Shown piece after piece: positions 14,231 to 61,985 of a stretch of DNA of 64,000 bases. The stretch lies in NCBI GenBank assembly GCA_030704615.1, contig CM060734.1:20522001-20586000 (forward strand), read 5' to 3'. The notes under the pieces are model-generated. The model ran no database searches and had not been told where the DNA came from. It saw only the letters and a list, made by a program, of their open reading frames with translations. Numbering within the stretch: the first letter of the stretch is position 1; every line of letters begins with the position of its first letter. The stretch is from Takakia lepidozioides (lineage: Eukaryota; Plantae; Bryophyta). The position numbers and the translations under genes are program-made.

Positions 14231-17200
14231 TGTAGCCGTACTCCCCTCAGAACCCTGGGTAACTCCGTGATGACACTCACAATGTGCACCTCCCCCACGT
14301 GACACTATAAGGCTCTAGAACTAATTCTAATAGTGACACGGGTAGGCACCTGTTGCAGTTTAAGGGTCATATCCCAGTGGCTCAGGGCACCTGCACCTGC
14401 ATCCACTGCAAAAACTCCTATGGTTGGCTGGTCATCAACCCAGTCTCACCATAGAAGAAACACTGGTGGTCTTGCTGGTCATCACTCCAGCCTCACCATC
14501 GACAGCATACTCTAGGATTGACCGGTGATCAAATCCGGCCTAATCCCTATGAAAGCAAGCGCCCACACAAACCAACATGGCGCACAGTCAAGCATGCAGG
14601 TGTTGGGGGGATCCAAACACAGAAATCAAACATCAACACCCCCACACCAAAATCCATCTGCAATGCTGATCCTGCAGAATATCCCCAGCCCAAAACCCCG
14701 GACTGACTGGCCTCCACCAAGAGAGGCTTTGGCAACTACAAGTACAAAGTAATAAAATAGTAAAGAGATGGAGGGAAAGAATAGAAGCCCGACCAAGCAA
14801 GATCTAATCCTGATCTATGCTATCAACTGCCAGACTTCTCTCAAAGTGCCTCGCTCTGCATGATGGTAAGGTGTAGGCGGTATATCTATGTCTAGAAACC
14901 TGCCACTAACCTTGTCCCAAGCTACAGTAGCTCGCTCTAACCAACCCTCCTCCTCTTTCTGCCAGGTAGAGACAAAGCAGTACTCCCCTATCTCCCGCTC
15001 ACTGAACACAAAAAAAAAAAGGTAGGGTGTGACAGTCTCTCAACTCGAAAGCTTTGAGACGGTTGCGGGTGTCCTCATTGCGAATGACTGCATCTCCTTC
15101 AAGCAAACAAACTTGTCATTGCCAATGAACCCCCGCTCGTGGTTGCCTTGCAGCGTGTCCGGCTGCAACCATGTCTGATTGCACAAACTTCTGTAGCTCC
15201 TGCTCCTCTGCTCCAGTACACCACGGCCTTGTGGCTGAACACCTTGGTCCCCGGGGCTGTCTTTGGCTGTGTTCCAAACCTAGCTTTCACCCACTTTGGT
15301 ATTTCACCTACAGCTGCAGAACTGTTGGCTCCAGCAGAGTTCTGACTGTCCAAAGCGATATTGAGGCCCTCAACGCCAACTACTACAGCAGTTTGTTGTC
15401 TACTGAATGCCTGACTCCCAGTATGCAATCAACTCGTCCAACTGTTCTCCACTCACTCAAATCAGTCTGAGTTCCTTGGGAAACATAAATCTTGTCCCCT
15501 TGTGTGCACAGGCTAAGAGAAGAGACCTGCCCTTCAATGACGTCCTCATTTCCCCCAGCCATACAAGGAGTACATCCCCAGATTTATCTCTCATGTAGAC
15601 CAGAACAGGTTCTAGAAACAGAATTGTGGATCTTTCATGGCACACTCACACTCTAAAAATTCCATAGATTTTTAACAGAGTCCCAAAAACTAAAACCAGG
15701 TCAAGATAGGTAGATTTTCCCTTTCTGCAGCTATCCCCTCAAAAACTGAGTCAAACAGAGTCCATTTGACAAAGATATGACCAATTTCGCTCTAAATCAT
15801 TTAAATTAGATCAAAAGGGTTTTTTTTTTTTTAATTTTTTTTTTTAAAGGTTTTCAAATTTAAAAATTTAAAGTTACACCCAAAATATCTGGTAACTGGT
15901 TCCCGTTCCCTAAGTTCTATATGGTTTCCTAGGTTCCCTGGCCACGTGCCTGCTGTTCCCCTCCATTTCATTTGAGTTCAACAGCTCACCATGCTTTGGA
16001 ATCCCAACTGTCTTCTACCACAAACAGTGGTGACGATGGAGGTCGTGGAGCTCATTTCCCCTTAGCAACACTTCACCTTGGCACCCTCACAAGTTTCATT
16101 GAAGTAAAGCTGGCAAGCAAGTTCCTACAAAGCCTGCCCCACACACCAGCTTAGCAGTGTCCAAATTGAGTGATCCCCAGCTGGAACCTTTCTTCAAGCC
16201 CGTCGGCTATGTGGAAACCCAGCTACAGTGCACGGAAGTACGAGTGCCTCGACCACTCTGCAATGTGCCTGGCTTTGTGGCAGATCTACCCTCTGATCCT
16301 TGCTTACTGGCAGGGGCTCTCAAACCCAAAAGAACTGTTGTCCACTGGCTTCGAGTCCGAGCTAGCTGATCAATCTGTGTGGCAGTGAGTACTGCTACGG
16401 TTCCAAAGGCAATATAGAGAACAAATGACGGAGGATGGCTATTTAACCATTCTAAGCACCTTGCCAGCTACAAGGGAAAAAACCCCGAATTTCCTCCTTC
16501 CCTGCCCTGCTTAGAAAGAGCAACCTAAGCTGCTGACAGTAAGAGCCTCTTTCCGAGGAAAAACCAAGACTCTTACGTCATTCAACCACTAGGGGTACAA
16601 TCCAGTTCACAATAACAGAGTCAGTAAATATCCTTCCTGACAGACTCCTTCACGTTCTACATAAAGCATATTTGCCAAAGCTGCAGTCGCACCATTGTGA
16701 AGGATCTTTAAAGAACTCCAGTCAGCGCTGTTCCATGCTCCAGTGCTGACCTACATGCCAGATATTCAAAAGGGCGATTCTTCCCATTATAGGCCCCTTC
16801 TTCGACCAGATTACTAGGTGCTGGTCAAGCCAAAAGACAGTTCACGGTGCATAGAATACCCGCATACAGAAACAGCGAAGTGTTATGACCTAATCTTGTT
16901 GGGATCCCTGAAGGCTTCATAGGAGGCGTACCTCCCACTTGGAAGGGACTCCGTACTTGGGCCTTGACAAGTACGATCCCGCTTTCAGCTCCATAACCCA
17001 GTCCTTAATCTGGTCAGCAAGCAGCAGTCAGCAGCAAACATCACGCATCAGTGAAAACCATAATCTGCTGCTCCATTTGAGTACATCTCTCAATCCTCTC
17101 TACAGTCCCCCAACATTACCAATCACATTCTCTTCTCTCTTCCTGCTCCCCCCAGCACCACAAGATGTGAAAGGCTTGTTCTGCACCCTCGGTTCTTGAT

Positions 17201-17895
17201 CCAAAAAAACTGATGAGCAAAGTGTTTCCATAAAAACAGCGGAACAAAGGATGGGAGAGATGGTGCATCCCTGCGCCCCGCCATCCAGCGCGCTCTGCTT
17301 CTCTCGTTCGACCTTCACTACTCGCACACCATACCGAGCGCGCAACACCGAGACTCGTCGACAGCACGTCCGGAGACTCCGCACAGGGACAAGCAGCAAC
17401 ACAGGTGCAGGCAGACAGTTCAGTGGTCACTGCAACTCCATCACCAAGAACTTGGGGCCAACTTGGCCAATTTCTACACTCATGCCAACCTGGTTCTTGA
17501 CAAGCTACCGCTCCCGCCAAGTAAAATCATCAGCTCTACAGGTCACGGTGAATCCAGCAATATGCCTGCAAGCCAGAATGGGCTACAAGCCAATGGCCCT
17601 TCTTGAGCTGCAACACAACGGACCAACAAATTGGGCACGACTGGCCTACTACTGGGTGCTCAGCTTGCCCCAGCGCTCAGGCAGCAGGGCTGCCAGGGCC
17701 CCGCGCGCACCCGCCACCACAACAGGATAACTACACCCTGATCACCACCAACGCCAATGTGTAAACAACAAGCGCATACCCATGGCAACAGCAGGGCCAG
17801 ATGGACTCCTGCCCCAAGATATATTATAATAGTGCTAAAACAAACATTGTATCTAGCTTAGCACTAGAAATCTAGATAGCGTCATCTCTCTCGAG

Positions 17896-18247
17896 TGATA
17901 AGAAAGCTAAGAACACACTGTTCACACAAGAAACAACATGAATCCAGCAGCATCACTCTTTAAGATAATAGTCGAGCCAGGGGCACCCCAAGCTATGGGA
18001 ACTCCACCCCACAACAACCTATACTCCCTACATAAGCACACTCAGATTCTAAAGCGTGAAGGAGCTCAGTCGCGCAGGCTCAACTCGAGAGAGATGAGCT
18101 GCGCGACTGACGCTCTCGTGAAGATAACGGTTCAGGTGTCAAACTAAACTTGACACCTCATTTAACACTTGACCTAAATCCAAGTGTTAAATACAAATAA
18201 CTAGCTTTATTCTAGTTAGTTTCACACTGTGCTTATTTAACTTGACA
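17896..18247 (-). repeat. 5' terminal repeat A of copy C
   Basis: Starts TGTCAAGTTA, ends TTATCA, contains the conserved hairpin at 18066-18110; no B segment upstream. Confidence 0.85.
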
Positions 18248-18824
18248 ACTTGCATACATAGGAGAGTGCACTTGGGCTTAAATGACACTTGACACTTGGG
18301 CCAACGGCACAGGCTACTCTAGTAGGTATGAAGTTGGATGTGGTTGTGGGTTCAAACCACGGTCTGGTGTGTCATGAAGGTGTAGCCCTTCCTAGCGGAA
18401 GGTAGTAGCCCTTCCGGGGGAAGTGACTCCATAAGTTACGCATCCTTCGGGAGGCGTCATACTTTCTTTGAAGTTAAATGGGTGCGCATGTCACGGTCAA
18501 GGGCCATGTCCAACCCCAAGGGCCCGCCACTATTTGTAAAGTTTTTAGCACATCTCACCTAGGGCGTGTCTATCTGTGGGCCCATCCCAAGACCAGGGCG
18601 TGTCTTAATGCGGGCCCGCCTCAAGACCTACACCAAAGGAGCCACAAACACTTAATAGTTTAGGGTTCCATTGGAGTACTATTTGTGTGAGCACAAAGGT
18701 AACCATGGTTGAGAGGGAGGTGACAGATGTGACTACTGCCGTGTTTGAATTCGTTTCACTTTGCAAAAATCTGCAACATCAATATATAAGGTAGTTTGTT
18801 AGTTTGTTTAGCTTGTTTTGTTTT

Positions 18825-19006
18825 GTTTTGTTTTGTAGCGTTGAAATCTCCCAAACCGCGGGCCCAGCCATGGTGCTTGGTACCGTTCGAAAACTCTCAA
18901 TGAGGAGGGGTGCAACGACTCGGTCTCATAATTTTTGGACTTGCGGTGTGGGAGATATGGAGTTTCAAGTATTTTTGGTCGTCGAAAATTCATGAAAAAT
19001 AGCAAA
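18825..19006 (+). repeat. Dispersed ~185-bp repeat, copy 2
   Basis: Similar to 6925-7108. Confidence 0.75.
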
Positions 19007-21849
19007 GCAGGCTTTCCTCGCCCTTCATTTGTCTTTTGTTCATGTGGGAAGATTTTTCAAGCTGAAATGTGATGGACTTGAAAAAACCACAATACAAAAT
19101 TATTATAATATACCAATTGGAACGGTAAAAAACTCTGCAATTTTTCAGGTAGAAACATGTAGTAGGTAGGATGAAAGTTGTAAGGTTCATTTCCCTTCAT
19201 GTTTGCGGCCAGCGAGATATGCCCTCATCCATGAAGGTATATACGATTTTGGGGGTGGCCCACCAAAAAACAGCTCGTCGTTTAAGGGTTAAAAAAAGTG
19301 ATACTCGCCCAACCACCATCCATCATCTCAGATTCGCCAACCAGGGTCTCGTAGGGTTGACAACTTTTCCACTCTTGTGGCTTGGATTGCGTCAGCAGAT
19401 CCCAACATCATCACCAATGTAGCAAATTCGATTCCCCAACAAGAGTCCTGTGGAGTTGACAAGGGTTTACCAAATCCCACGAGACAGGGGTGAACTGCTT
19501 TGCTTTGTAAAAAAGCTGGATTGGACCAGGGAGTCTACGCGGTTGACGACTTTGTCCGACACGCTCCGGCTCGAGGAGGAGCCAGCTGGTAGCAGAAGGT
19601 GGGCGTGGTCCAACCTCGGAAGTAAACGCATCGCCTCACTTCTTCTCTTCCACCGCCCTGCACAGACTTGCCCACTACAGGTTTGCCATAAAGGCATGGC
19701 CCAGGTCCTAAAAGCCGCAGCTCCTGCACCTCCGTGGGCCGCTGCAGCTGCTGCCACGGAGAGGCTCCATTGTCTCAGCGATGTGACTCCGTGACTACAC
19801 TGCCCGTCGGTGCTTCAGATCGGATTTCTACTTTCTACTATCTAGTACCCACCTTTCACTTGCTTTTATTACTTGCAACGTTAAATGCTCATAGCTTGGA
19901 AGATGAGGAAGGTTTGCTGTCGGCTAATAACTTGTCGCACTTCCTACACCGAACTGCTTATCAATTCAATGATAATTAAATCTCCGCATTAGGCTCTTCT
20001 CTCCGACTCATGGCCATGCATCAAATACCCAGCCGCTGCCAGTGAATGAATAATACATCGCAGCTTTCTTAGAAAATTTATGTTTATACTCTCGGCCCAA
20101 CCATCCCAATACAGACTGATGATGAGTAAAGATTGAACGGACTCCCATGCAATAGTTCTAATAAATCACATAGGGATCCACTCATCATACACCTCGATAT
20201 AATGCGGTTGGACTAATGAAGACGCAAAGACAAGCAGGAGGAGTTGGACATGCACACTAATAACCCACAAATCAGACCATCACTTATTCTCTTGGATGTA
20301 ACGCAATCAGTGAGGGTGCCATGAAGACATGCAACTTTGGACAAGCCGAACAAGCCAGGAGACGGACGCAGACCAGAAAACCTTATATTATTGAAGCTAT
20401 CTTGAAAGTCCTAAGAGCATCCCCACTCTACGCCTCTATGGACCCCTGCACCCATACTTCTCGTATACAGGTTCAAAATCGCCGCCAAACGTACCACACC
20501 CTTGCCCCCCTACCATATACCCGTTCAGGGCGGGTACTGAACTGCCTCTCTTTCACTGAATCCGTCCCTGAACTCGTCCCCCCTACCATGGACATGTCAG
20601 AGCGTGCCTCCCGGCCTCTCACTTCCCTTCCAGCCGAAGACAAGAGCTGCGACACAGGAATGACGAAGGCAAGCAGTAGGTGGGGAACGTGATAAGAAGC
20701 GTTGAGAACGTCACTGAGAACTTTGGGAACATAAGGTACAGGCGCGTCAAGGGTGTGGCTATGAGCAGCCGACCCCTTCACACACCTTTCCAGAGTCCTG
20801 AACCAACCCCTCCAAAATAGGCATAGAGGGGCCATTTCAGTGAGAAGGGTGGGGATGCTCTAAGACAAGTCGCATAATCCAAGATTTGGAGTCTGCACAA
20901 TGCAAACAAGGTAAATAAGTCACATATCGATCCTTGGATATAATGTGTGTGTGTACTTGGATGATAATGATGTAAAGACAAGCCTGGCACATGTTTCTGC
21001 AAAACTAGACAGCCGAATCTGAGTGTACATCATTTGGATTGATGTAATTAGGTGTGCAGGAGGAAGCCTGATGTAGTTTTCAAGGACTCGCCCTCGATCA
21101 AAGACGCTAAAGGTAGAATTAGCAATGCTTGCCAAGTGCGTAAGTGGAGGCATTACAGCGCAAGGATGGAGTGGCGTCATGATTGCATGCAGCAGGCGAG
21201 GCAGTCGGCAGCGGCCTGCGCCATTCCACCCTCCAGGCAATGCATTTTCATATTCAGTCCACCCGTGACCTATCCCCAAACAAAGCAAATCCCATTTCTC
21301 CATGATCTTGGAGAGGGGGAGTTCTGGTTGACCGACGGATGGGACAGACGACGGAGAAGAGTCCGACCAGAAAGAGCCTCTTCGGGACACGTTGCAGCAT
21401 CTGAAAGGCCGTGTGGATTAATCGACGGTGAACAGACGACCGCGCGTGGAGCAAGAGTTGACTGCAGCGTACCATGAATGCGATGGAGCCGTACCTGTGG
21501 GATCGCTCGCAGCCCTCTCTTCTCTGCGATCTTTTCGTCCCCGTCTCTTCCTCAAATGCCCCCCACTGTGAAGCCACATTCACAATTTCCCAGCCCAAGT
21601 TCCCCAGCTTGAGATAGAGCTTTCCTGCACTGTGGCACTGTGTTGTAACATGTACACAAAAAACAAGAGCGGCAACCCATCTGCAGTACTTCTTCTCAGC
21701 TGCTTGCTCGTTGGGCTGCACCCACGCGCCGTAGTTGCGCCAGCTGATCACTGGTGGTGAGGTAGGATTGGAAGCAGTTAAAAGTTAGAAGTGTGAGGAG
21801 GAGGTTTGGCAACTGCGCCTGCTTCCGGTTTTTCTCCGATATTTGTACG

Positions 21850-23910
21850 ATGGGAAGAGCTCCCTGCTGTGAGAAGACAGGGCTAAAAAAGGGCCCCTGG
21901 ACACCTGATGAGGACCAGAAGCTGGTGTCTTACATCCAACGCCATGGCCATGGCAGCTGGCGCGCTCTTCCAAAACACGCTGGTATGTCTCGCCTCAATC
22001 TCGAAATAAGCGCACTGTTATTGTGAGGGGGATCTAGGACAGGAAGAGATGTCACAGGCTCGTAGCAACCACGCAAGTCGTAGAGTAATGTTGATATGTA
22101 TAGGCTGAATTGTGCGAACGGTGAGTCGTGTGTTAGAGTGTGTTCCTCTCCTGTGTCGACCGTGCTTTGATGCAAGACTGTCCTAGATGTGGTGCAGGGT
22201 TCAGACCAGCCTTCTGCCGTTGTATGATCCTTGAAGTACTGCTCACTCTGTTGGTTAGACGCCTACCCAGCTAATACTGTAGACGACCACAGACAGGCCC
22301 ACTGAAAGATTGGACTTTGGATGTTTGTGCAGGCCTACTAAGATGCGGCAAGAGCTGCCGATTGAGGTGGACGAACTACCTGCGGCCTGATATAAAGCGC
22401 GGGCGGTTTTCTCTAGAAGAAGAGCAAATGATTATTCACCTCCATGCCATTCTCGGAAATAGGTTTGTGTTCTCTACCAGCTGGAAACTTTGTCTCTTGT
22501 ACTCTACATGTATGAGGAACCCAGCAAGTGCCAGCTTGTGTTCGAGGCAAAGTCCCTATCGCTCTCTTGCTCTGGGTTGCATGATGCTGGCACACTGCAC
22601 TGCCGTCTCTTCTTGTAAGGAATGTTATTAACCTGGCGAAAATGTGTTTACGTGGGTGCAGATGGTCAGCCATAGCTGCGCATTTGCCAGGGCGCACAGA
22701 CAATGAGATTAAAAACTACTGGAATACCCACTTGAAAAAGCGGCTGATGCAGATGGGGATAGACCCAGTGACACACAAAGCCAAGTCAGACCTTGTGCTG
22801 GACAACCCCGATGTGAAGCCATTGTTATCTTCCAAGTTAAGTCATATGTCCCAGTGGGACAGCGCGCGCATAGAAGCGGAAGCCAGACTTGCCAGCGAAT
22901 ATTTCAAGATGGGAAGCAAGGAACGCTCCACATTTGTCGCTAATCCTGCTCAGCTCGGCTCTGTTGCGTTTATGAGGACATGGAAGTCCCAAGTCACAGA
23001 ATCACTGCGGCAGCAGTTTGGTACAGTAAATTTTGACAAACCGACGGCGAGTGTAGATTTTCAGAGGTTTCTGCAAGATTGGGAACAATCTTTGCAAGGT
23101 CCTGCAGTAAATGTCTATGATTCTGCAATGCCAAGTGCTGCCTCCCCAGCCTCTGACTCACACTCCAGCCATAGTAGTCTACATTCCTTTGACAGCCAGG
23201 GCGGCCCCATTTTTTTAAATCATTTGTGTGAGGCGGTGTCGAAGGCATCCCATTCAAGCGTGGCAATGGATCACATGTCACCGACTTCTACTCTGTGCTC
23301 GCTAGATGCACATTCAAGCCAGTTTGGGAACAATGCCTCTGAAAATCTTCAAGAAGCAGAGCCAATTTTCCCGCGCGATAGGCTGCAGAGCCCATCTTCT
23401 GGATTATCGTACCAAAATGGTGGTCTGACAGAAGAAAGTAGTCCTACGTTTCCCTCCAGCTTACAGGCTAGTTCATTATTTGGCGCAAATCCAGACAGTG
23501 TCAAGAGCTCTACTGGGCATGGGTTTTGGCAGCAGCCGCAGATGATCGAATCTGCAATGAAGCGGTTCAGGGCTGAGGGCGCGGTTGTCAGACCAGTGCT
23601 TCCAGGGGTGAGCCTTGTGGATGCAATCCCTTCCGGCAGTCTCCTAAGTGAGGCCGATTTACTGTCAATTGAGAGTCCACAGACTACTGGAAGTGCCTTG
23701 ACCGAGAACTCCTACTCCTCGCTGCTAGCACCAGAGCTACTGCTTGATCTTGTGGACAATGTACGAGTTCCTACTTCCAAGAGTTGCTCATCACCAGCAT
23801 GGCCGGAATTGGGGAGCTTTGAGAGCAAGGACTATTGGACCAACATGTTGCAGCTGGTGAGCCAGACTCCGTTCCATCAACAACTTGGGACTGCCCCCAT
23901 TCATCAATAG
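21850..23910 (+). CDS. R2R3-MYB transcription factor, subgroup 9 (MIXTA/MYB16/MYB106/MYB17-like); exons 21850-21982, 22333-22462, 22662-23910; 503 aa
   Basis: [74 protein letters not shown]; canonical 133/130-nt first exons with GT-AG introns; [17 protein letters not shown] resembles the subgroup-9 AQWESARxxAExRL motif. Confidence 0.95.
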
Positions 23911-36877: not shown

Positions 36878-38393
36878 GTATTTTCTTTACTCCACATGAA
36901 AGGTCCCTTATTTTGAAAATGGACATTCTTGAATGGTTTCTGAGCAAACTGTAATCCATACCAGCGGTTTTAGACACCCTGACATGATCAGATGTGACTT
37001 CATAGACCAATCTCCTAGGAGAAGTGTGGAAACCCTGGGGTTTGAATGTTATCTCCAGCGGTTTTGCCCATCATGATTGGACCATGTTTTGCTGTGCAGC
37101 CACATGATCACCTGGGGTTACATTGTGAGCACTTATGTACTCATTCAACGGTGAGTTCAGAAGAGAAAGGGCAAGAAGGACAATTGAGCATAACCGAATT
37201 GCTGACTTTTCTAGCGTGGTTGCTACAAAGGGGGTAGTTGACTGCATGTCGTATGTATATATGTACACATCTGGCAGGTAGATCTGTTATGTTCCCCACA
37301 CTCTGTCATGGGTATCTATATGTTCATGGAGAGGGGTTGGTAATTTTGCAGGATATAGTTGGCAGGGTCTAAGATGCTCAAGGGGAACCTGCTTTAGACA
37401 ATGTGAGTTGCCAACCGTTTACGGGAGAATAAAGAGATGGACACATAGGGAAGGTAGGATGAGCACATTACTTAGTTTGGTGCTCTGGGTTTGTTGTTTC
37501 TTAAAAGCCTCTTCCTCAAAGCTTCATACATATAGCCAGTGGTTAGGCACCGTGACCAGAAAATACATGATTACGGCTTGTGTTGAAGGTTACGCTGCGA
37601 GCCATGGCTGCGGACATTGCTTACCAAATTTGGGATGTAGGGCTGGCATCATTCAGCTTTCTGATAGACACAATTCTGATCTTCAGTTTTCTGGTAATGG
37701 GGTTGTGGAGCACACGTTGAAAACCTTCAAATGGACACTCTTGCTGAAGTTCCACCCGACGTAAGCAAAGTCAGAGGAAGCCTACCATAAGCAATGTCAG
37801 AGGTCAAAGGGTAATTGTGGATTGTGGCCTGTATGTAGCATAGCGTTTTGCTCCTTGAGTTGGAACATCTGTATTAAAAAGGACTTCAAAAGTAGCTTAT
37901 CAAATAAAAGCACATACCAGCCAAAAAAAACTGTTTTGCTTTGGTACCTACACCAGCACCTTTGTGTAAGCATAGCCCTCAATCTTTTGTCCTGCATCCC
38001 TGCGAGCACACGTACGGTATAGCACGTACAATTGTCTTTTTAAAGATGCAATCCTTAGTGGATTGACTACTCATAATGCATAATGTTTTTAGTAGGACCT
38101 TGGGAGATCTAAACCTCTAAAACCTGCAAAAATTCCACTCATAAAGCGATATGGTGTTGGGTTTTGTGTCAAAACAACATATGTCCTTATGCCCGCCCAA
38201 CCTTTCGAACCCAAGTGGTGCATCACCGCCGTTTCATCTTCTTTTGTCGTGTCTACTCAGTCACCCCTCTCGCGCCCTTTCCATCTGCACTCTTCGCCCT
38301 TTTCCCTGTCTCTGTTCTTCTTATGCTCGCACCTGAGAGGGAGGGAGTTCGTGCACCAGAGAAGAGACATCGTCGCAAGCTCCGCAAATTGTA

Positions 38394-38719
38394 TGTCAAG
38401 TTATTTTACCACTAGTGTGAAACTAGCTAGGAAATAGCTAGCTTTTACATATTGACATTTGGGATTGGCCCAAGTGTCAATCCAGGGGTCAAGGCAGATT
38501 TAGGCCCTGGAGTGGTTATCTTCACGGCAAGCGCGGGAGGCTCATCTTTCTCGAGTTGAGCCTCACCGCGCCTAGCTATGGCGCCGTAGTGTGGATTCCC
38601 ATGGCGTGGGGTGCACTTGGCTTGACTTGTATTTGAGTGATGAGGTTATATATGCATGAGTTTATGCTTCAGCTTTGTGAGCTCGCATGAGCTTGTGCTT
38701 GTATTCTTCCTCTTTATCA
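38394..38719 (+). repeat. Terminal repeat A1
   Basis: Nearly identical to 48879-49205 (one substitution and one 1-bp indel seen). Confidence 0.95.
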
Positions 38720-38735
38720 CTCGAGAAAGATGAGC
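38720..38735 (+). promoter_or_regulatory. Putative self-priming primer binding site
   Basis: CTCGAGAAAGATGAGC is the exact reverse complement of 38540-38555 inside A1; does not start TGG as tRNA-3'-end PBSs do. Confidence 0.8.
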
Positions 38736-40244
38736 TCGTATCTATGAGTGCTAGATACGAGTTAGTTGTAGCACTTGTGGTTTTTGCTTGAGAATGAGAG
38801 AAACCAAGTTGTTATGCAAGGAGCACCGTGGAGCTCTTGGTTGTTAGAAGCGGAGGCGATGTGGGTTACGAGGTGGTAAACCTTGGCATTCGATCTTCAG
38901 CTTCAGAGATGAAAGCACCATACTGCAGGTAATTCCAGAGCACCTTGATGGTTTCAGATTGTGTACATGCATGAGCAAGCACGATTGGGAAGAGGACCAG
39001 TCAAGAGCAGGTTATAGTGGCTTTGGTGGCAAAGCTGAGAACTGGACTTGGGAATGCGAGCTTTCATTGTGTGAAGGATTGCAAGACCAAGCGAAAGGGC
39101 TGATTTGGCTTGGGGCAAATCAGTGCACTTTGTGGAGTATGGTGAGATTGGGTTTCAATCTCGAGCTTCAGCATTGAGAGGGCTCTTGTCATGGCAGAGC
39201 AGGGCTGGAACAGGAGCTAAGAGGTGCGGCAAGGCCATGGAATGTGCACCTAGGGTTTCAGCTTGGAAGAAGAGCTCTTGCACCACAAGAGAAGTGTCTT
39301 GTGGCTGGAAATGTAAGCCTTAGGGTTTCAGGAGCTTGGCAAAGGCTATGGAGTGCTTAGTCTTGTCTAGAGAGCATCAAGGAGCCAAGGAGCCAAGATA
39401 GGGGGCTGATATCTCTTGTGTGAAGAGGTTGCATGTGTGGAGCATGTATTCAGCTCATTGAAGCTTCCATCTTCAAGCTTGGAGGGCAAGCAAGGAAGAG
39501 GGAAGGGCTGACTTCCCTTATGTGAGGGCAATGTATGTGTGGAGCATGCTATCAGCCTGGTGAAGGCTTGCACTTTTAGGTGTGGGAGTGCAAGAAAGGA
39601 AGGAAGGGGCTGGTTTTCCCTGTAGGGCATGTAGAGCATGCTTTCAGCCTGCTGAAGCTTGTATTTTCAGGTTTGTGGGTGCAAGAAATGAAGCAAAGGA
39701 GCTGATTCTCTTATGGTGAGAGTGGGGCATGTGTGGAGCATGCCTTCAGCCCATTGAGGCTCTTGTTTTCAAGCCTTAGAGAGCTAGAACGGAAGGTCTA
39801 GGGCTGGTTTCCACTTGGAGTGAAAGAAAAGCACTTGTAGGGCCTATGTGAGTTGGGGTTTCAACTTCAAGCTTGAAGGGAGCGCAACTCTTGAAGCAAC
39901 AGGTGTAGAGGGCTGGAATAGGCTCTAAGACAGATGCTATGGCCAATGAGAGTGCTTGAATGAGTGCTCACAAGGGCTGGGAACCAGCAGGGCTTGGTTG
40001 TTTGCCATTGAGTTTAGTGGCGTGTTTGGGGAGGCTAAGTGAGAAAGAAGGCTTGGTTTGTGGCAACCACCTCATGGCTTAGGGCTACTATGGTGGTGTG
40101 GGGAGCCGAAAGAGCAAGGATACCTTGCTGATTTCCTCACAGCCACCATAGCTCGGTGGAAAGAAGCCTAGAGTCCAAGAGACACAAACCCTAGCTTGGC
40201 GTGGCTAAACCCCTTGGAGAAATGGCTAAACTGCCAGAGCGGCC

Positions 40245-40960
40245 ATGACAGGCTGTGGCAAGCTGTGTGTGGAACGGGCTGTGTGTGTGGGCTGTGATGG
40301 GCTGTGACAGGCTGTGTGCCCTGTGGGGCTGTGATGTTTGTGGGGGGGCTGTGACAGGCTGTGTGGAGGGCTGTGAGGGGCTGTGGACCTGTGACAGGCT
40401 GTGCCCTGTGCCTGTGGGGCTGTGACGGGCTGAGGGAAGGCTGTGGGGTGCTGTGAGGCACGGGCTGTGAGGGGCTGTGACAAATGTGTGAGTGTGGGGG
40501 CTGTGACGGGCTGTGAGGGCTGTGACAGGACTGTGACGGGCTGTGTGTGACAAAGGGCTGTGCAACAGGCCGTGCTGGCCTTTGGGGCTGTGACGGGCTG
40601 TGAACAAGGGGGCTGTGACGGGCTGCTGTGTGTGGCCTTTGGGGCTGTGACGGGCTGTGAGGGGCTGTGACAGGCAGGCCTTTGGGGCTGTGACGGGCTG
40701 TGAGGGGCTGTGCCTGAGGCCTTTGGGGCTGTGAGGCTGTGACAGGCCGTGCCTGAGGCCTACGGGCTGTGAGGGCTGTGACTGAACTGTGTGTGAGGGG
40801 GGCTGTGACGGGCTGTGAAACTGCTGTGGAATGTGAAAGGCTGTGTGTGAACAGGCTGTGCCCACCTGTGGGACTGTGACGGCTGTGACCAGTGAGCTGT
40901 GTGGGCCTGTGCTGGTCTGTGTGGCCCGTGTTGACCTGTGGATGGCCTGTGCTGACTGTG
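40245..40960 (+). repeat. Degenerate GGCTGTGA minisatellite in the 5' leader of copy B
   Basis: Dozens of ggctgtga/ggctgtg units. Confidence 0.9.
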
Positions 40961-41179
40961 GAGGCACTGGTGGACTAAGGACTGGCATGTGGTCTGGAAG
41001 GCCGAATTTCTCGTGGAGGGCGGTTTGAGGAGTATCTTCATGATATTCCCATGGTCATGCAAGTTCAGGTTAGGCTATGTTAGGAACTTAGTATTCCAAA
41101 CCATAAGCCGCAACAGGTTCTCTACCGGTTACCTTGTGGAGAGGGGGTTAGGGACATGTTCATGACCGGTTGAGTCAAC

Positions 41180-43720
41180 ACGGAGGTGCCACTAGTTGCT
41201 GGGGACAGTGCCGGTTCGAGCACTAGCGATACTAGTGGGTACACGAGACGAGGTGTGCGGTTTAGGCCACCTTCACCTCCTGTGTCTTCCACGGAAGGTT
41301 CTGATTCGGATTGTGAATCAGGAGGACTCATACCGGCGGTGCAAGTTGTTTCTTTGCCATTTGTGGGACACAATGGAGGAGATGTATGGAGCTACCAAGG
41401 GGCCACGAAGGTACTCTGGGGCGGTGGGCACCATCGAGTTGGATGATTTTATCCAAGAGTTTGATAGTTGGTGTGATTTGCAGCAAATGCGCAATCCACA
41501 ACTATTTACGCCTTCATGGCATGGAAAGGGCTGTTTCAGCACCTTGAGGGGCCGCCTATGGATGATTACCATGAGTTCAGGCGGGGGCATGAGGTTGAGA
41601 TCGAGGAGTGGAGGATGTACTGGTCACCCGACTATGTCTCCATCACTAGGGGCACTAGAGCCACGAGGGCAGTGGCTACACCTGCCGCTGCACCGGCAGC
41701 TTCAGCAAGCCAGTGGGACTGGTGGTACAGTAGCTACGACGTCCACCCAAGCCACTACCGCACCAGCACTAGCACCCGTGCCTGCCTTCAACCCTGTTGT
41801 GGAGTTCTTCGAAGAGTTGAGAGGGAACTACCAAGGGGTGAGGACAGAGAAGTTGCGGAGCTTGCAAGAGTTCCAACGGAAGCCGACCGAGAGCTTGAGG
41901 GAGGCTTTCACTCGCATGAGGCGCTTGATAAATGTAACCCAAGGGGTTACGGAAGCTCAGGCAGTCCAATTCTGGTATGGGATATTGGACAAGGAGCTGA
42001 GGAGAAGGGTGCGGGATGCAACTCTCCTACAAGCGGCCCAACCCACCTTAGCAAATGTGTTTTTGCTGGCAGAGCGGATAGAGCTCAACATGGTGGAGGA
42101 ACGAGTGGTCATGGTGGGATTTGCTAAGGAGACACCACGGGGTAGTGGTGCTCCTAGCCAACCACTACCTCAACGTGCTCAAGGCAACAAGGGGGCTCAG
42201 GTGAAGCTCAGGGAAGGGCAGAGAGGACCTCAGATGCAGGGGTCTCTCCCTTCATTTGCTGGCCAACAACGGGCGGATGTGGTGTGCTGGACATGTGGAG
42301 GACCCCATGTCAAGAAGGATTGCCCAGAGGGAGGCAAAGGGCGGCACATGCACAGCCTGCACAGTTGCAGTGTGGGCATTGTGGCAAGCACGGGCATGGA
42401 GAGGCCCAGTGTTATGGTTTGCATCCTGAGTTGCGCCCAGGCCAGTTCCAAGGGAACATGGTGGCCGGGGGCGAGGTGGAGCAGCCCAGAGAGGACGAGG
42501 CCAGCCACGAGGTGCAGGCCAAGGGCAAGCTCAACGTGGCCAAGGACGCGGAGGTCAGGGTGTTGACCAAGGCATGGCCAACCGGCTTCAGCAGCTAGAG
42601 CAGAGGCTCGCTGCCATGGCTACAGCTCAGGTGGTACCGCTCTAAGGCCGGATGGTCCACCTCCTGCTCCTGAGGAGGAGATATGGGAGGCATGGGATTC
42701 ATGTGTGGAGCAGCACTACCACTAGTGCAGGTGGAGTCTGCTGCAGCCGTGACTCGAGGAGCAGCACGAGTTCCTGAGCCACGAGGTGCAGAGGTGGAGT
42801 TGGATCCACAGCGTGGGGAGGCAAGCCGTCAGGCTAGGCTTCCTCAGTCATTCACATTGGCGGAGACAGTGTCGACGCCATCCATGGCACCTAGTTCTCG
42901 CCCGACTGTTACCGAGGCGGAGGTTACTATGCCATTGGGGAGAGCTACACGGGTAGCACCACTACCTAGTGTTGCCAAGGCTACGGCAGCTAGTGTGCTG
43001 CTAGGAGCGGCCACATCTGTGTGCCAGGCTCCATTGTTCTCGGCTACCATGATTGCGACGCCGGGGGTAAGACCAGCTGAGGTGTTCAGGCTGGCAGCTA
43101 CACTCTGTGAGAGTGGGGAGGTTACTTCATCTTCTGCGGAGATAGTGGGAGGTGTAGTGCCGGAGGGATCCTCGGATTTGAGGGTCAAGACTGCCACGGC
43201 GGCGCCATGGCAAGCTGCAGCTGCCAGGTTGATGGAGCTGCCAGCTAGGCCAGCCATTGAGCGCGCCATGGTGACACCTGGAGTTGTCATGTTAGACAAC
43301 CAGGATGGCATTTTCTGTTTGAGTGGACCGGCAGGCAAGAGGTACCGGCCACTGCGGTCTTGTTGGACTCGGGAGCTCAGCCATTGATGCTGGGCAGAGC
43401 TGCTATTGCAGGCTTGGGCCTCACGGAGGCGGATATGGAGCCTTGTCCTTTCCAGATACAGACGTCTCTGGGAGGATCGGAGCAGGCTCGGGGCATGACA
43501 CGGCGTGAGTTGGCTATCAGACTACGGCCGGATCACCCTACAGATGGCTCAGTGATGCGAGCCAAGGCCATTGTGACAGACGCAGTCTCATACGATGTCC
43601 TGGTTGGTGGGGCAGTGTTGTACCCCATGGGCTTCACCCTGGATTTTTGGGAGGAGTCAGCTTCCTATAGGCCTGCATGGCAGTCAGGGGAGGGCCGGCG
43701 TGTGCAGCTCCCTGTGACGT
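41180..43720 (+). pseudogene. gag (two CCHC knuckles) and aspartic protease of copy B, split by frameshifts
   Basis: ELDDFIQEFDSW; FQRKPTESLREAFTRM; CWTCGGPHVKKDC; CGHCGKHGHGEAQC; LDSGAQ...YDVLVG. Confidence 0.9.
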
Positions 43721-44069
43721 TCATAGGAGGAGTTGCGGTTGCCCAGCGAGGCAAGATGCCGACACTAGCAGCATTCACAGCGGCAGTGAGTTGGCCTAGA
43801 GAGTTGCTTGAGGGCAATGCTCATTCAGAGGATGTACCACCTCCGGAGAGCAGGATGACATGTATGGTATGGCGGAGTTGCCTACCATGGTTGCTCAGAC
43901 TCCATTGTGGGGCACGAGCAAGGATTTGCAGCGGGATGCTGATCGACGGGTGCAACAAGCCTGGGTGGAGGCTTTTGTACCGTCAGGAGAGGAGGAGAGT
44001 GTGGGGATTGCACCAGGACCACCTCAATTGTCTCCATTGGACACCACACCTATTGTGTGGCAGTATCCG

Positions 44070-45020
44070 GATGAAGGCATTTGTCTTCTGGACTTGTTTG
44101 GCGGGATCAGCACCGGATTGGCTGCTGTGTTACAGGCAGGTGTACGAGTTCGGCGTTACCTGTATGTGGAGAGGGATGAGACTGCACGACGCGTCACTTC
44201 GCCATGTTGCTCAGTTGGTGCAGCGGTACCCTGAGTTGTTGTCGGTGTCTGCAATTCGTGGATATCAGCAGGCCTTGCCAGCAGACATTTCGTTGCTGGG
44301 GGCGCAGGATTTGGAGCGGTTGGCTCCATTGATCTGGTAGTGGCAGGTTGGCCCTGCCAAGGGCATTCATCAGCCGGGCATGGCAATGGATTGCGAGACT
44401 CGAGGTCGGGTCTGTTTTGGGAGATGGTGCGGGTTTTGCGCCACTTGCAGCTTCATCAAGCTGTATCTCCAGCATACATCTTGGAGAATGTGCCACTGAT
44501 GGGCGATTCTCGGGCCAGGGTGATGGCCAGTGTGCATCAAGTCCGGTCGTGGCTTGGGTCAGCAGTGTTGCTAGATGCAGCTACAGTGGGGTCACGGGCT
44601 CATCGTCCACGGCTATGGTGGACTAACTTGATGCCACCCGCACTGCTCAAGCGTGCATTTGATGGGGTGCAGCGGCCAGCACATCTCACAGTGGATAACA
44701 TTCACACAGGGAGGCAGTCTCAGTGTGAGACACGATGACCGTTCGCCTTTGGCAGTGGTCAACAAGGTGGGTCAACCACGAGCAGCATTACCTACACTGC
44801 TCAGCTTCCCAGGATCGCATGCTTTCCGGGATAGTGGACCTGGCCTCCTGTGGGATGCTCAGTTGCAGCAGTTAGTGGAGCCTAATGCTGACGAGCGTGA
44901 GCGGGCAATGGGTTTTACCACTGGTACCACGGCGGTGTCGTCTCTTTCTGAGGCATCACGTCGTCAAGTGTTGGGGCAAGCAATGGATCTCAATTGCTTG
45001 ACCTGGATTATCAGCTTGGC
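44070..45020 (+). pseudogene. DNMT3-like DNA (cytosine-5) methyltransferase domain within pol
   Basis: ICLLDLFGGISTG, YLYVERD, VAGWPCQGHS, SGLFWEMVRVL, YILENV, AHRPRLWWTNL, ERERAMGF, RRQVLGQAM; catalytic PC intact; small frameshifts. Confidence 0.93.
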
Positions 45021-45474
45021 TCTGCTGAGCAACGCAGAGTGCGGAATACACTTCCCTCAATGGTCTCTCTGCCTACCGAGACGGTACAGGCAGTGAGTGG
45101 GGGCGAGCATGTGAGGACCACGGGGTGCATGCATCCATGGCACACGTGGGAGGTGCTCGAGGTTCAGAGGGAGTTGGCAGCCAAGGCGGCTGTGATGGAT
45201 GAGGTTGGGGATTCTTCTCGGTTGAGGAGGTCCTCAAGGATGAGATGATGGGGCAGGATGAGGCCTTGTCATTGACTGAGCAGGTAGGGAGTACTGCTCA
45301 AGAGGTTGCAGCATAGCAACCACGGACGCGTCCTCTACCTCTAAGCCCACTGGACTTAAGGTTGTAGTTACGGAGGACAATTGGGAGCCTGACATTGGAC
45401 CCATTGTCACCGGAGGAGAGAGACGACGTATACGGCGGTTCCTGAGGGCTTACAGGAATTGCTTTGCCTTCAGT

Positions 45475-46800
45475 TTGAAGGACTTGGGAGCACTGAAGGG
45501 TCAAGAGATCCGTATTGAGTTGGCCACTGACACGCCAATCTTTCGGAGACCCTATAGATACAGTGACATGGAGAGGTCTTTGATTCAGATGAGGACTCAA
45601 GATCTCTGGGAGGCAGGTTTGGTGGAGCTCTCTGGTGGAGAGTATGCTTCAGCCACAGTGATGCCAGCCAAGAAGGATGTCTATGGCAATTGGACGGAGA
45701 GACGTATGTGCGGTGATTACCGGCCTGTAAATCGTCAGACCAAGTCCGATAAGTATGCCATGCCAACACCAGAGGAGATCTTTGATGCCATCGGGCATGC
45801 TAAGGCCTTTAGCACTTTGGATTTACGATCCGGATATCACCAGTTGCCAATCAAGGAGGCGGACAAGCAGAAGACGGCATTCTGGGGGATCAATGAGCAC
45901 GGCAAGGATTGCCTATATCAGTGGCGGTTCTTACCATTTGGGCTTAAGAATGCTCCTGCAGAGTTTCAGAGAGTCATGGATAGGATTCTAGCAGGGGTGG
46001 ACTTTGCTCGGTGCTACATAGATGACATCATCATCTTTAGTGTTACGATGGAGGAGCATGAGAGACACCTTCAGGTGGTATTGGAGCGCTTGAGAGCGCA
46101 CGGATTGAAGTTGCATCCGGGAAGTGCAAGTTTTTCCACAACCAGATTGAGTATCTGGGTCACATGATATATCCTGGAGGATTGGGGGTACAGCAGACTA
46201 AGGTAGAGGCCATTGCACAAATTCCACGCCCCACGGATGTGAGCCGAGTTCGAGCTTTCATGGGGTTGGCAAACTATTATAGACGGTTTGTCAAGGGATT
46301 TAGTACCATTGCAAAGGCTCTAACCAAGCTGACCAAGGTGGACCAGGAGTGGCAGTGGGAAGATGAGCAGGAACGAGCTTTTCAAGAGCTCAAGGCGAGG
46401 TTGACCTCGGCGCCTATCTTGAGACGACCTATCAGGGGGCGTCCCTTTCAGCTGCATACGGATTGGAGCATGCTGGGGCTTGGAGCGGTGCTCACACAGG
46501 TGGATGATGAGGGAAGAGAGTTCGTAGTGGCTTACGCTAGCCGCTCGAACAACGCTGCAGAGGCTAAGTACAGCTCATATGAGGGAGAGTGCTTAGCTGC
46601 AGTGTGGGCCGTGGCACACTTCAGGTGCTATCTATACGGCAATCTTTTCACCCTTGTCACGGATCACCAGCCACTCAAGTGGTTGATGGAGTCAGACAAG
46701 CTTACGGGAAGCTTGCACGGTGGGCACTTATACTCCAGGAGTATGACTTTCAGGTTGTGCATCGACCGGGTTTGGTCAATCGGGATGCGGATGGATTGAG
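45475..46800 (+). pseudogene. Reverse transcriptase and RNase H of copy B
   Basis: CGDYRPVN, LDLRSGYHQ, PFGLKNAP, YIDD; TDWS, EGECLA, TDHQPL. Confidence 0.96.
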
Positions 46801-47194
46801 TCGCAATCCATGCATGAGCCAGCAGGATGACACTGGAGCTCGGTGGCATGGTGAGACGGACGAGGAGATGGTGCCGGGATGGCACGCATCTGCATTTTTG
46901 TGTATCTTGGCATCGGGAGGTCAGATTGGACCTACAACAGGGATGACTGTAGACGGAGTGTCTGAGGACCCTGAGGCTAGTGATGAGCTAGGTGGTGCCA
47001 GAGATATACAGGATTCGGCTGTGTTGGACTACCTCCGCACGGGAGACACGGCAGCCATTGTGACTGCCAGGGAGAGGGATCGGATCCTGCAACGAGCCAA
47101 GAGGTTCAAGTGGGAGGGGATACACCTACTTCGAGTGTGGGAGGATGGTCGGGTGAGGATTGTGCCTCACCCCACACAGCGTGCACGGTTAGTG

Positions 47195-48290
47195 CGGCAT
47201 GCCCATGAGGAGTTGGGGCATTTTGGAGTGCGACGCACTCACAGTTTACTGCAGGGGCAGTATTGGTGGCGTGGTATGCATACAGAGGTGCAACAGTTTG
47301 TGGCTAGGTGCATGGTGTGTGACAGGGTGCGTGCTTCATTCAACGCCCCTACACCACAGTTGCATCCTTTACCAATCATGGGATTGGGCTACAGGTGGAG
47401 TCTTGACTTCGCAGGACCGTTGCCACTGACTATGCGCCACCACAGATATGTGTTGGTGATGGTGGAGCACTTCTCCAAGTGGATTGAGTTGGTTCCATTG
47501 CCTGACAAGGCTAGTGAGGGGGCTGCGTATGCATTCTTGGATCGTGTGCTTAGCCGATTTGGTGCTCCAGCTGAGGTACTCACGGACCAAGGGAGAGAGT
47601 TCTTGGGGGAGTTTCAGGCTTTGTGTGATAAAGCCTTGATAGACCACCGCACCACTTCTCGGGATCATCCTGAGGCCGATGGCTTAGCAGAGAGAGTTGT
47701 TCAGACGGTGAAGAGGGGTTTGCGCAAGTATGGCTTGCAGAAGGGACACCTAGGAGATTGGGATCTTCAGGTTCCTTGGTTAGCCATGGGCTACAGGTTC
47801 AGCAAACAAGCATCACTTGCCTCCTTCTCACCATATTTCCTTCTCTTTGGCCGAGAGCCGGATTTGCCTGCAGCCATTCGTAGGGACACTGCTCAAGTCC
47901 TTAACCTTGACGATCCGGACGTGTGGGTACGTGCATGTGATCAGCGTGCAGAGTTGTTCAAGAAAGTCATGCCCATGGCTTTTGAGAACCTTGCCATTGC
48001 ACAGCACCGTGATACGTTGAGGTATGCCACTATACGTGGTGGAGGATATCGTCCTGGGGTTCGGAGGTTTAGCCCTGGTGACTATGTTTATTTGCAGCAG
48101 ACTGCTCCTACGACTCTGGATGTTACTGCAGGGCGTGTTATTCTGAGGGTTCGAGAGGTGTTGCCCTCAGGGGTCCTGATCTTGAGGGTCGGGATGGCAT
48201 GACTTGGAAGACCATGTGCGTAATTGTGCGCCATGTCACCTTCCCAATGTCGATGGCAGAGTTGACCCAAACTTGGCAGTGGTACCTGCA
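47195..48290 (+). CDS. Integrase domain (HHCC plus DDE) of copy B
   Basis: HAHEELGHFG, CMVC, SLDFAGPL, LTDQGREF, DGLAERVVQTVK in ORF 46589-48202. Confidence 0.93.
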
Positions 48291-48298
48291 GGTTTGAG

Positions 48299-48443
48299 GT
48301 GCATGCTCTGTGGGTCTGCCAAAGGGGCAGCCACCATGCTGGTGTGTGATCGATGCTCAAGGGGTTGGCATATGGGATGCTTGACACCACCTCTTGAGAA
48401 GGTTCCTGACGGAGATTGGTTGTGTCCACACTGCTTGGGATAG
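48299..48443 (+). CDS. PHD finger at the integrase C-terminus
   Basis: C4HC3 pattern CMLC..LVCDRC...[23 protein letters not shown]. Confidence 0.92.
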
Positions 48444-48690
48444 TGGCAGTGGACATGACTGGAGGCAGCTAACAAGACATGGGAGGCCAAGCTCATAGGA
48501 GTCAATACATGAGATCCCAAGCTCAAGTTCACAGGTTGCAAGACGGCGACTAACGATGGGGCAACTCTTGCACCCGGCCTCTTGATCTATCGAGTTTGAG
48601 TGTAGTAGGGAGTGGTGGAGGACTTAGTGAGGCTATGGTCACTATCACATCTTGTGGCTACCTGGACTTAGAGGGACCTAAGCACCAGCT

Positions 48691-48700
48691 AGGGGGGCGA
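48691..48700 (+). promoter_or_regulatory. Polypurine tract
   Basis: AGGGGGGCGA immediately before the TG that starts repeat B1. Confidence 0.7.
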
Positions 48701-48701
48701 T

Positions 48702-49393
48702 TGTGTGGACTAGTGACTGCCATAGTGGGCAGCATAGTGGCAGCCTAGTGACTGACTAGTTGTAGCCTAGTGGTTGGACTAGTGGTGACTAGTGGTATAC
48801 TAGTGTGTGGTGTGCACATGTGTTGTGTGGTTTTGGACAGCGATGTAGTTGTGTAGCGATATGTATGCGCACGACAGCTGTCAAGTTATTTTACCACTAG
48901 TGTGAAACTAGCTAGGAAATAGCTAGCTTTTACATATTGACATTTGGGATTGGCCCAAGTGTCAATCCAGGGGTCAAGGCAGATTTAGGCCCTGGAGTGG
49001 TTATCTTCACGGCAAGCGCGGGAGGCTCATCTTTCTCGAGTTGAGCCTCACCGCGCCTAGCTATGGCGCCGTAGTGTGGATTCCCCATGGCGTGGGGTGC
49101 ACTTGGCTTGACTTGTATTTGAGTGATGAGGTTATATATGCATGAGTTTATGCTTCAGCTTTGTGAGCTCGCATGAGCTTGTGCTTGTATTCTTCTTCTT
49201 TATCATTGTGTGGACTAGTGACTGCCATAGTGGGCAGCATAGTGGCAGCCTAGTGACTGACTAGTTGTAGCCTAGTGGTTGGACTAGTGTTGGACTAGTG
49301 GTAGACTAGTGGTATACTAGTGTGTGGTGTGCACATGTGTTGTGTGGTTTTGGACAGCGATGTAGTTGTGTAGCGATATGTATGCGCACGACA
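48702..49393 (+). repeat. 3' terminal repeat block B1-GC-A2-T-B2
   Basis: B1 48702-48876 matches B2 49207-49393; A2 48879-49205 matches A1. Confidence 0.95.
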
Positions 49394-49606
49394 TGTACTT
49401 TGGACGTAGGCCAATGCCGAAGGGGAGGAAGCAGATGCGTCTTTAGAATGAGATTGCCATCTCGCAGCAGCAGGCCACGCAGGCAACCCAGCCACCAGTG
49501 AGAGCTCCGTGCTATCGGGATGCGCGCAGCTGATTGAGCACCGAAACCCCCCTCATTTTTCTTGTGCAATTCTTAGACTGTATGCTAGGAGACTTGAATG
49601 CAGAAG

Positions 49607-53480: not shown

Positions 53481-54458
53481 TGTCATGCACCTAAGCATCG
53501 TGCCACAACATACATCGCTGTCCAACCACACTTCCTCAGGGTCTTCAGACACTCCGTCTACAGTCATCCCTGTTGTAGGTCCAACCTGACCTCCCGATGC
53601 CAAGATACACAAAAAAGCAGATGCATGCCATCCCGGCACCATCTTCTCATCCGTCTCACCATGCCACCGAGCTCCAGTGTCATCATGCTGGCTCGTGCAT
53701 GGATTGCGAATCAATCCATCCGCATCCCTATTGACCAAACCCGGTCGATGCACAACCTGAAAGTCATACTCCTGGAGTATAAGTGCCCACCGTGCAAGCT
53801 TCCCCGTAAGCTTGTCTGACTCCATCAACACTTGAGTGGCTGGTGATCCGTGACAAGGGTGAAGAGATTACCGTATAGATAGCACCTGAAGTGTGCCATG
53901 GCCCACACTACAGCTAAGCACTCCCCCTCATATGAGCTATACTTAGACTCTACAGCGTTGTTCGAGCGGCTAGCATAAGCCACTACGAACTCTCTTCCCT
54001 CATCATCCACCTGTGTGAGCACCGCTCCAAGCCCCAGCATGCTCCAATCTGTATGCAGCTGAAAGGGACGCCCCCTTATAAGTCGTCTCAAGATGGGCGC
54101 CGAGGTCAACCTCACCTTGAGCTCCTAAAAAGCTCGCTCTTGCTCATCTTTCCACTGCCACTCCTAGTCTACCTTGGTCAGCTTGGTTAGAGCCTTTGCA
54201 ATAGCACTAAATCCCTTGACAAACCGTCTATAGTAGTTCGCCAACCCCATGAAAGCTCGAACTCGGCTCACATCCGTGGGGCGTGGAATCTGTGCAATGG
54301 CCTCTACCTTAGTCTGCTGCATCCCCCATCCTCCAGGATATATCATGTGGCCTAGATATTCAATCTAGTTGTGGAAGAACTTGCACTTCCCCGGATGTAA
54401 TTTCAATCCGTGCGCTCTCAAGCACTCATCCCCCAGAATGTCGTCTTCTGCTTGTCCG
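53481..54458 (-). mobile_element. DNMT-Gypsy family fragment E: terminal part of repeat B joined by deletion to RT/RNase H sequence
   Basis: 53481-53536 matches B at 54459-54514; 53537-54458 encodes RNase H/RT (FQLHTDWS, LVTDHQPL, IYPGG). Confidence 0.85.
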
Positions 54459-54844
54459 TGTCGTGCACCTAAGCATCGTGCCACAACATACATCGCTGTC
54501 CAACCACACTTCCTAGCATATAGTCCTAGAAAACCACGCCACAATGATACAGAAATGGTGAAAAGAGGAGAAACCACTCTATCACGTTATATAAATCAAG
54601 CCAATGGCACCTTTGCTAAAGGACTCCACCATACAGACCTCACCCACTCTCCATCTCAAGTACTAGAGCTATGGCGGCGAGAGAGGCCTCGGGAAGCTCG
54701 ACTAGAAGAAGACGAGCCTGCCTACGTCTCACGTGGAGATAACCTCCCCACGTCCCAAGTGAGGTTCGCCACTATCCGTGGCATTGAAGCCCCACTAGCT
54801 AGACCTTGGGTCACTTGTCCGCCTCACCATTGTCATGCCCACTA

Positions 54845-61200: not shown

Positions 61201-61985
61201 GGTAGAGAACCTGTTGCGGCTTATGGTTTGGAATACTAGGTTCATATTCTGAACCTGCACCTGCACCTGCATCCACCGCAGGCACTCCTATGGTCTGCTG
61301 GTCATCAACCCAGCCTCACCATAAGAGAAACAATGATGGTCTGCTGGTCATCACCCAGCCTCACCACCGACAGCACGCTCTAGGATTGGCCGGCCACAAT
61401 ATTTCCGGCACAACCACTATAAAAGCAAGCGCCCAAACCAAACTAGCATGGCGCACAGTCAAGCATGCATGTGTGGGAGGAGGATCCAAACACAGGAAAC
61501 TCAAACAACAACACCTCCCACAACTTAAATCCATCGATCCTTGCGGCTTCAATAAACCTGCAAGATGCCAAGTCTCTATCCAAACCAGCTCTGCCTCCGC
61601 TTACGGAAAAGCTTTGGCCTACAAGAATGATGGAAGACTATAGAGAAGAGAAGCTAAAGCAATCTCTAAGCCCAGAATGCTCTCATCCCATTACTCCCCC
61701 TATCTTCACACTCACTCTTGCTTAAGCAATAGATAAGACTATCCTTAAATAACCTCTCAAATAACTCTCAAGAGCCCTCAAATTATTGCCATGAACTTCT
61801 GAAATCTGCCCTCAATCACCCCTAACATAGACCCACCGAGGTTCAAGAAGTTCGCAAACTTGGACTCTAAACAGTCCACCAAAAGGCCCTAGGCGCCCGC
61901 CAATTAGTGGCCTCCATGGTCTCCAACCAGCCCTCACAATGGCTCCACAAGCCTGCCCAATATGGCCTCCAAGAGTCCTCCAAAC

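Follow-up and report, generated by a model that had tools for sequence, protein, structure and literature searches.

A predicted self-priming signal in a split-repeat Ty3/gypsy retrotransposon of Takakia lepidozioides

How does a retrotransposon with long direct repeats begin its minus-strand DNA when no tRNA-type primer binding site (PBS) follows its left repeat? Element B of Takakia lepidozioides, which lies in the window (the whole stretch of 64,000 nt analysed here), raises this question together with two related copies, C and D. An earlier note on this DNA had proposed that the PBS pairs with a hairpin loop in repeat A, either as a self-priming structure of the Tf1/sushi type or as a loop-PBS pseudoknot switch. 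The absence of a tRNA-type PBS was borne out, as none of the PBSs examined starts with TGG. A search of the window with Rfam (gathering threshold) and ARAGORN found nothing.

Element B and its relatives

Element B occupies 38394-49393 (+) in the order A1, coding region, polypurine tract (PPT), B1, GC, A2, B2. Repeat A1 (38394-38719), its left end, starts with TGTC, and repeat B2 (49206-49393), its right end, ends with GACA; a 4-bp target-site duplication, tgta, is found at 38390-38393 and again at 49394-49397. The PPT (48688-48699), a tract that relatives also carry 5' of B, precedes repeat B1 (48700-48876), which likewise ends with GACA, and repeat A2 follows at 48879-49205. The B-A junction is the palindrome GACA-GC-TGTC (48873-48882), a candidate integrase site. 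A1 and A2 differ by one substitution and one gap, and B1 and B2 by two gaps with no substitution, so the element is young. In six contigs from two runs the first base of A is exactly where the match starts, other sequence standing 5' of it, and in nine contigs A runs into B.

Judged by its sequence matches, element B is a frameshifted Ty3/gypsy element with a C5 methyltransferase, a DDE integrase and a PHD finger. The coding region comprises a gag-like and protease-like part (41487-44337, frameshifted; placed by tblastn, with a weak Retrotrans_gag match in copy C), a frameshifted C5 cytosine methyltransferase domain (44235-45093; PF00145, E 4e-13, extent by tblastn), reverse transcriptase (RT), RNase H, H2C2 and rve integrase (45280-48202, frameshifted; domain matches) and, 3' of the integrase, the PHD finger (48186-48443; PF00628, E 7e-12). 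No chromodomain was matched in the element, the PHD finger being there instead, and the scan of 30 of the 47 long frames matched no tyrosine recombinase. Degenerate tandem arrays lie within the long 5' leaders of both B (40232-40926) and D (61909-62854).

Relatives were taken from the best 80 of 465 related metagenome stretches, with one more from a genome collection, and most belong to a single family, M1. No relative turned up in two protein scans of viral contigs, and the three matches of a degenerate motif scan (L002-L004) were taken as chance. In a quick RT tree with a midpoint root, which held no named Tf1, sushi or Tcn1 rows and from which one short row (P0129) was dropped, the window RTs grouped with PHD/DNMT rows (43 rows in the group, SH-aLRT 99), and none of the 17 rows with a chromodomain or SH3_Tf2 was among them. 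RT relatives among the matches listed came from Calypogeia, Marchantia and Sphagnum, two of the Marchantia matches with the methylase family, and no Klebsormidium-named row was among the 120 + 120 matches listed. One relative (L001, 1-9285) is a plant-type retrotransposon assembled as a circle within a record titled as a cyanobacterial genome, a likely contamination. One M1 copy has as its neighbour (L082, 15299-15951) a member of a second family, more distant, in which PPT, B, junction, A and B follow one another and the palindrome is related.

Self-complementarity at the PBS and the hairpin of repeat A

The PBS of element B (38720-38735) is the exact reverse complement of 38540-38555, as the earlier note had it, and the loop/PBS pairs and hairpins of copies C and D were likewise found where it had placed them. 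In copy C, repeat A1 (17896-18247, -) contains the hairpin 18066-18110 and the predicted primer 18095-18083, complementary to the PBS at 17882-17896 (-); in copy D, repeat A1 (63685-64000, -), whose start lies beyond the window, contains the hairpin 63834-63859 and the predicted primer 63853-63841, complementary to the PBS at 63673-63685 (-). One more pair was found in copy B, between T38556 and A38719, the final base of repeat A. Counted from that final base, the perfect complementary runs are 17 bp (B), 15 bp (C) and 13 bp (D), with 156-187 nt between segment and PBS. When the 330 nt upstream were dinucleotide-shuffled (n=1000), the longest run was 9 for each of B, C and D, and the observed run was reached by 0 of 1000 shuffles in all seven cases, window copies and outside relatives together. 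We place the PBS core at 38719-38731 (+), with complementarity reaching 38735 in copy B. The tail of the 16-nt PBS, 38733-38735, is shared with a separate 12-bp hairpin immediately 3' of it (38733-38763, +), which is weaker or different in other families. Family M1 repeats part of the primer segment about 85 nt further downstream, and this partial copy is likewise complementary to the PBS (L011, 1933-1943).

Covariation was scored in six families (B, C, D, M1, L001 and L044), each represented by a single copy. Over 12 core positions, Watson-Crick pairs fill 72 of 72 cells with no G-U, unlike a second helix, which contains wobbles; two or three pair types occur at 8 of the 12 positions, though the cells are not independent because the families are akin. 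Segments and PBSs combined across families pair at only 5-11 of 12 positions. A 13th position pairs in five of the six families, and the four positions past it in 16 of 24 cells. Of 26 left regions, five were duplicates and seven had deletions or anchors that could not be read; in the 14 decayed M1 copies that remained, 146 of 168 core cells are paired, while four of the 14 copies pair at the 13th position and 9-13 of them at the four positions beyond it. The contigs of the host copies gave 0 variant rows at a 3% threshold in 38539-38560 or 38719-38731, where a missing row alone proves nothing. At 38732, the first base past the 13 bp, G to C makes up about 20% of the depth in run X3 (2606 contigs), which may be the source sample, and 41% in run X5, depth being a contig figure; no partner row at 38543 was listed in either run. 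The cis self-complementarity is a real, conserved signal in a split-repeat gypsy lineage.

In retroviruses that use tRNA primers, the primer serves as template for the plus-strand PBS. Exact tracking of primer and PBS is therefore expected in a self-primed element, whose plus-strand PBS would be templated by its own primer; such tracking supports priming, yet it is no independent evidence for selection on the RNA fold.

A conserved TATA-like motif, a putative promoter element, lies at 38515-38525 (+) in element B. A TTATCT motif (B, C and D) or a TATA sequence (M1, L001 and L044) stands 28-32 nt before the purine that opens the core pairing in all six families. In the contigs of two runs no RNA start could be recognised. 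In the model that we prefer, the transcript would begin at or near this purine, 38544, and its first 12-13 nt would anneal to the PBS, be cut off as in Tf1 and prime minus-strand DNA. The predicted self-primer is thus the first 13 nt of the RNA (38544-38556, +), with a length uncertain by a few bases; we estimate 12-13 nt and possibly up to 17. Since pairing extends beyond the 13th position, the RNA start could sit up to about 5 nt further upstream. When the RNA was begun 12 nt before the terminal T, the primer-PBS helix had a mean probability of 0.61-0.96 in all seven folds. The folds also predicted a second helix and local hairpins unlike the three-duplex pretzel described for Tf1. In the 5' RNA the right arm of the hairpin of repeat A would pair with a GCTYGAC motif (38620-38626, +), which is found once in R-U5 of all six families.

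At the A2-B2 junction of one rearranged insertion (L017 and L014) stand 15 additional nt. The first 12 agree with the PBS of this insertion at 11 positions, and the bases past these 12 diverge from the genomic sequence 3' of the PBS. This is what a retained copy of the primer would look like, in a single event of a rearranged copy. An inverted A fragment spanning the hairpin lies at the breakpoint of the same copy (L017, 11302-11408).

The cross-family covariation, the spacing of the TATA-like box, the predicted folds of the 5' RNA and the one insertion with a PBS copy at its repeat junction all point to self-priming as the earlier note had proposed it. A Tf1-like start near 38544, with the first 12-13 nt priming at the PBS, is our best reading of sequence and folding models, and we put its probability at roughly 0.8.

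The hairpin of element B (38531-38571, +; about -29 kcal/mol) is copied identically in repeat A2 (49016-49056). Its z-score is -5.9, against -4.1 in C and -1.1 in D; neither the D hairpin, equalled in stability by 43 of 300 shuffles, nor that of L011 is significant. The earlier note had stated that pairing, loop length and stem are all kept. The pairing is; the 12-nt loop is found in B, C and D and is missing from M1, L001 and L044, where the primer segment sits largely in the stem, and the stem of D on its own is not significant. Addition of the upstream arm to the RNA lowered the probability of the primer-PBS helix to 0.08 or less in five of seven folds and left D (0.78) and L011 (0.96) unaffected. 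Embedded in the hairpin, a copy of the segment binds the PBS more weakly by 6-13.5 kcal/mol in all six families. According to these folds the conserved feature is sequestration by the upstream arm rather than a position in the loop, with D and L011 as exceptions.

As the left arm of the hairpin lies 5' of the predicted RNA start, the 3' repeat (A2) and strong-stop DNA are the only places in which the hairpin could form. The left arm would then be U3, and in the 3' repeat the hairpin would keep the duplicate, decoy primer segment off the PBS. The folding results incline us slightly towards such masking of a decoy by a U3-borne hairpin. The hairpin may also have a role in 3' end formation.

The switch proposed in the earlier note would have the RNA start upstream and retain the hairpin, whose loop would kiss the PBS. 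It would agree with the 12-nt loop of all three window subfamilies and with the residual pairing 5' of the core. The segment is in the stem in three of the six families, however, and a loop position that is not conserved makes such a kissing pseudoknot unlikely. The 13th base, moreover, has a partner in the stem as well as in the PBS, and in D all three places are altered; as both structures need this base, hairpin and primer-PBS helix are mutually exclusive. A full helix turn through a closed 12-nt loop is also sterically unlikely. Pseudoknots are outside the scope of the ViennaRNA folding model, and the switch is in our view very improbable. Just as improbable is the excision of the primer by a nuclease from the hairpin of an upstream-started RNA, followed by annealing to the PBS: the hairpin does enclose or pair with the segment in six of six families, but its geometry varies among them and the TATA spacing agrees with a start at the segment itself. 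Priming by a host tRNA or tRNA half with an incidental internal match, for which there is precedent in half-tRNA priming of plant copia lineages (described in part of PMC6317226), is in our view very unlikely, since no PBS begins with TGG and 8 of the 12 PBS positions vary among families, always in step with the segment in cis.

Split repeats and comparison with known elements

Identity between A1 and A2 stops exactly at the PBS, and identity between B1 and B2 begins exactly at the PPT. Because these are the places where linear cDNA ends, the borders imply end-joined cDNA opened at the palindrome GACA-GC-TGTC. Ordinary LTR-type copying would yield B-GC-A … B-GC-A, with B-GC-A as the working LTR. 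The A2-B2 junction would be the joint of both cDNA ends (A to B), its one A coming from either side, and integrase would open GACA-GC-TGTC beside the PBS-side A to give A-coding-B-GC-A-B. A cut after each CA of the palindrome would give ends like normally processed ones and would account for the termini and the target duplication. We consider it an even bet that end joining and opening of the palindrome generate the layout.

The insertions of M1 show the same arrangement. B1, two bases and A2 follow one another in seven distinct insertions (9 loci), and the A2-B2 junction is free of indels in all six intact ones. The eleven insertions with both ends have a 4-bp duplication, read from the flanks, that is exact in eight, matches at 3 of 4 positions in two and at 2 of 4 in one. 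A short form ending after B1 was found in fifteen distinct insertions (18 loci, a count that leaves out two more with broken B or PPT); it fits integration of a one-LTR circle, later B1-B2 recombination and assembly collapse alike. L001 is a repeat collapsed to a circle and L044 looks alike; both give the order PPT, B, junction, A, PBS, and the layout is not readable from circles. Pairwise distances between B1 and B2 of six old M1 copies, all heavily decayed, had the B2 of the same element closest or tied in three of six rows.

The element start is visible in 23 of the 26 left regions, representing 20 distinct flanks, and B precedes A in none of the 20. As a symmetric two-LTR circle also predicts A-B-A-coding-B, an asymmetric step is needed, for example an end-to-end jump of the RT; we cannot so far explain this asymmetry. 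The combined picture, a green-lineage non-chromovirus Ty3/gypsy clade with a U3-masked self-primer, joined cDNA ends and a DDE integrase that opens an internal GACA-GC-TGTC, is tentative and falls a little short of even odds. If it is true, the real LTR is permuted at every insertion, and an LTR element uses circle-type or end-jumped integration as the normal route of its life cycle. It makes the specific prediction that integrase acts on cDNA with joined ends, cutting it at an internal palindrome rather than using linear ends, and the old question of productive LTR-junction circles becomes testable in an abundant, recently active family. Self-priming and split layout, taken together, fix which parts of these elements are U3, R and U5.

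PAT, TOC1 and Ngaro are DIRS-order elements with split direct repeats. For the layout alone, replication of the DIRS/Ngaro type, with RNA running through B2 and an A-B junction inherited from the parent, would explain the indel-free junction of the six intact M1 insertions, and the A-coding-B-A-B order is shared with SymbioDIRS-Dnmt3 in the available text of PMC5890265. Unlike that order, the elements described here have an rve (DDE) integrase, TG…CA ends, target duplications of 4 bp, and a PBS and a PPT with which the repeat borders coincide; the frames scanned gave no tyrosine recombinase, and B1 and B2 of element B differ by no substitution. We regard such replication as unlikely.

The closest described layout is that of KnitGypsy-Dnmt3 of Klebsormidium nitens, with repeats arranged like DIRS (legend of Fig. 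4c, PMC5890265). Compared by description, in the parts of that article available, it shares with element B the order RT, RNase H, DDE integrase, a cytosine methyltransferase in pol (here at the PF00145 level) and A-coding-B-A-B; the host here is, unlike Klebsormidium, a land plant. The available description, with a term search of three supplements, contains no PBS, priming mode, hairpin, target duplication, junction palindrome, layout mechanism or integration model. In passages available from a 2019 opinion paper, land plants such as tracheophytes are said to lack methylase-bearing elements of this sort (PMC6338049), and those of a 2026 preprint on methylase-bearing retrotransposons (10.64898/2026.05.21.726589) hold nothing about priming.

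In Tf1/Tf2 and the Tf1/sushi group, including plant Tcn1, the PBS can pair with a stretch inside the 5' repeat and no tRNA-type PBS is present, according to the portions available of PMC6317226, PMC4600332 and bioRxiv 10.1101/2022.12.06.519325. As in these elements, the PBS described here pairs with a segment of its own 5' repeat and not with a tRNA 3' end. The Tf1/sushi link drawn in the earlier note is thus supported for the mode of priming, and membership of the group is not supported: the elements in the window have a PHD finger and no chromodomain, a methyltransferase, RTs that the quick tree places in a separate group and A-coding-B-GC-A-B in place of two conventional LTRs. Their predicted secondary helices differ from the pretzel in the accounts available, and a hairpin with an upstream arm is present here. 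Phygy of Physcomitrella, as far as PMC6317226 is available, is also a moss non-chromovirus gypsy of similar size with a 4-bp target duplication; unlike element B it primes with tRNA-Trp (81%) and has no extra domain. A PHD finger in a green-lineage gypsy is also known from Gypsy-7a_cRei of Chlamydomonas (PMC9940879, in its available part) and from REM1.

Self-priming is already known from Tf1/sushi, Tcn1 and copia TAR, and the split layout has been noted once, in KnitGypsy-Dnmt3. No title or opening abstract listed from an open-access library describes their combination, which could nonetheless appear in subscription papers or theses, in Repbase reports, in figure images or in bioRxiv supplements. 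For annotation, the implication is that standard programs looking for two LTRs would mis-bound this lineage in spore-bearing plants, or miss it.

Other copies in the window

The coding region of copy C lies at 7248-14314 (-) by sequence comparison, its 3' end being lost; where it is lost, a direct repeat with 84% identity flanks the copy (6923-7109 and 18822-19007). Copy D has a partial A2 followed by B2, which ends with GACA (54459-54772, -; repeat comparison). After this B2, at 53481-54459 (-), come a 925-nt pol fragment, 94% like element B, and a second D-type B end (56 nt, 98% like B2), by its sequence probably a chimeric or re-primed product. At 2044-2546 (+) a partial B, GC, A, B of family B stands alone with no coding region; within its loop the primer segment differs by one substitution. 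Apart from these copies, an exon-like frame of a MYB transcription factor lies at 22585-23910, and its best named matches are moss, lycophyte and liverwort proteins at 35-38%.
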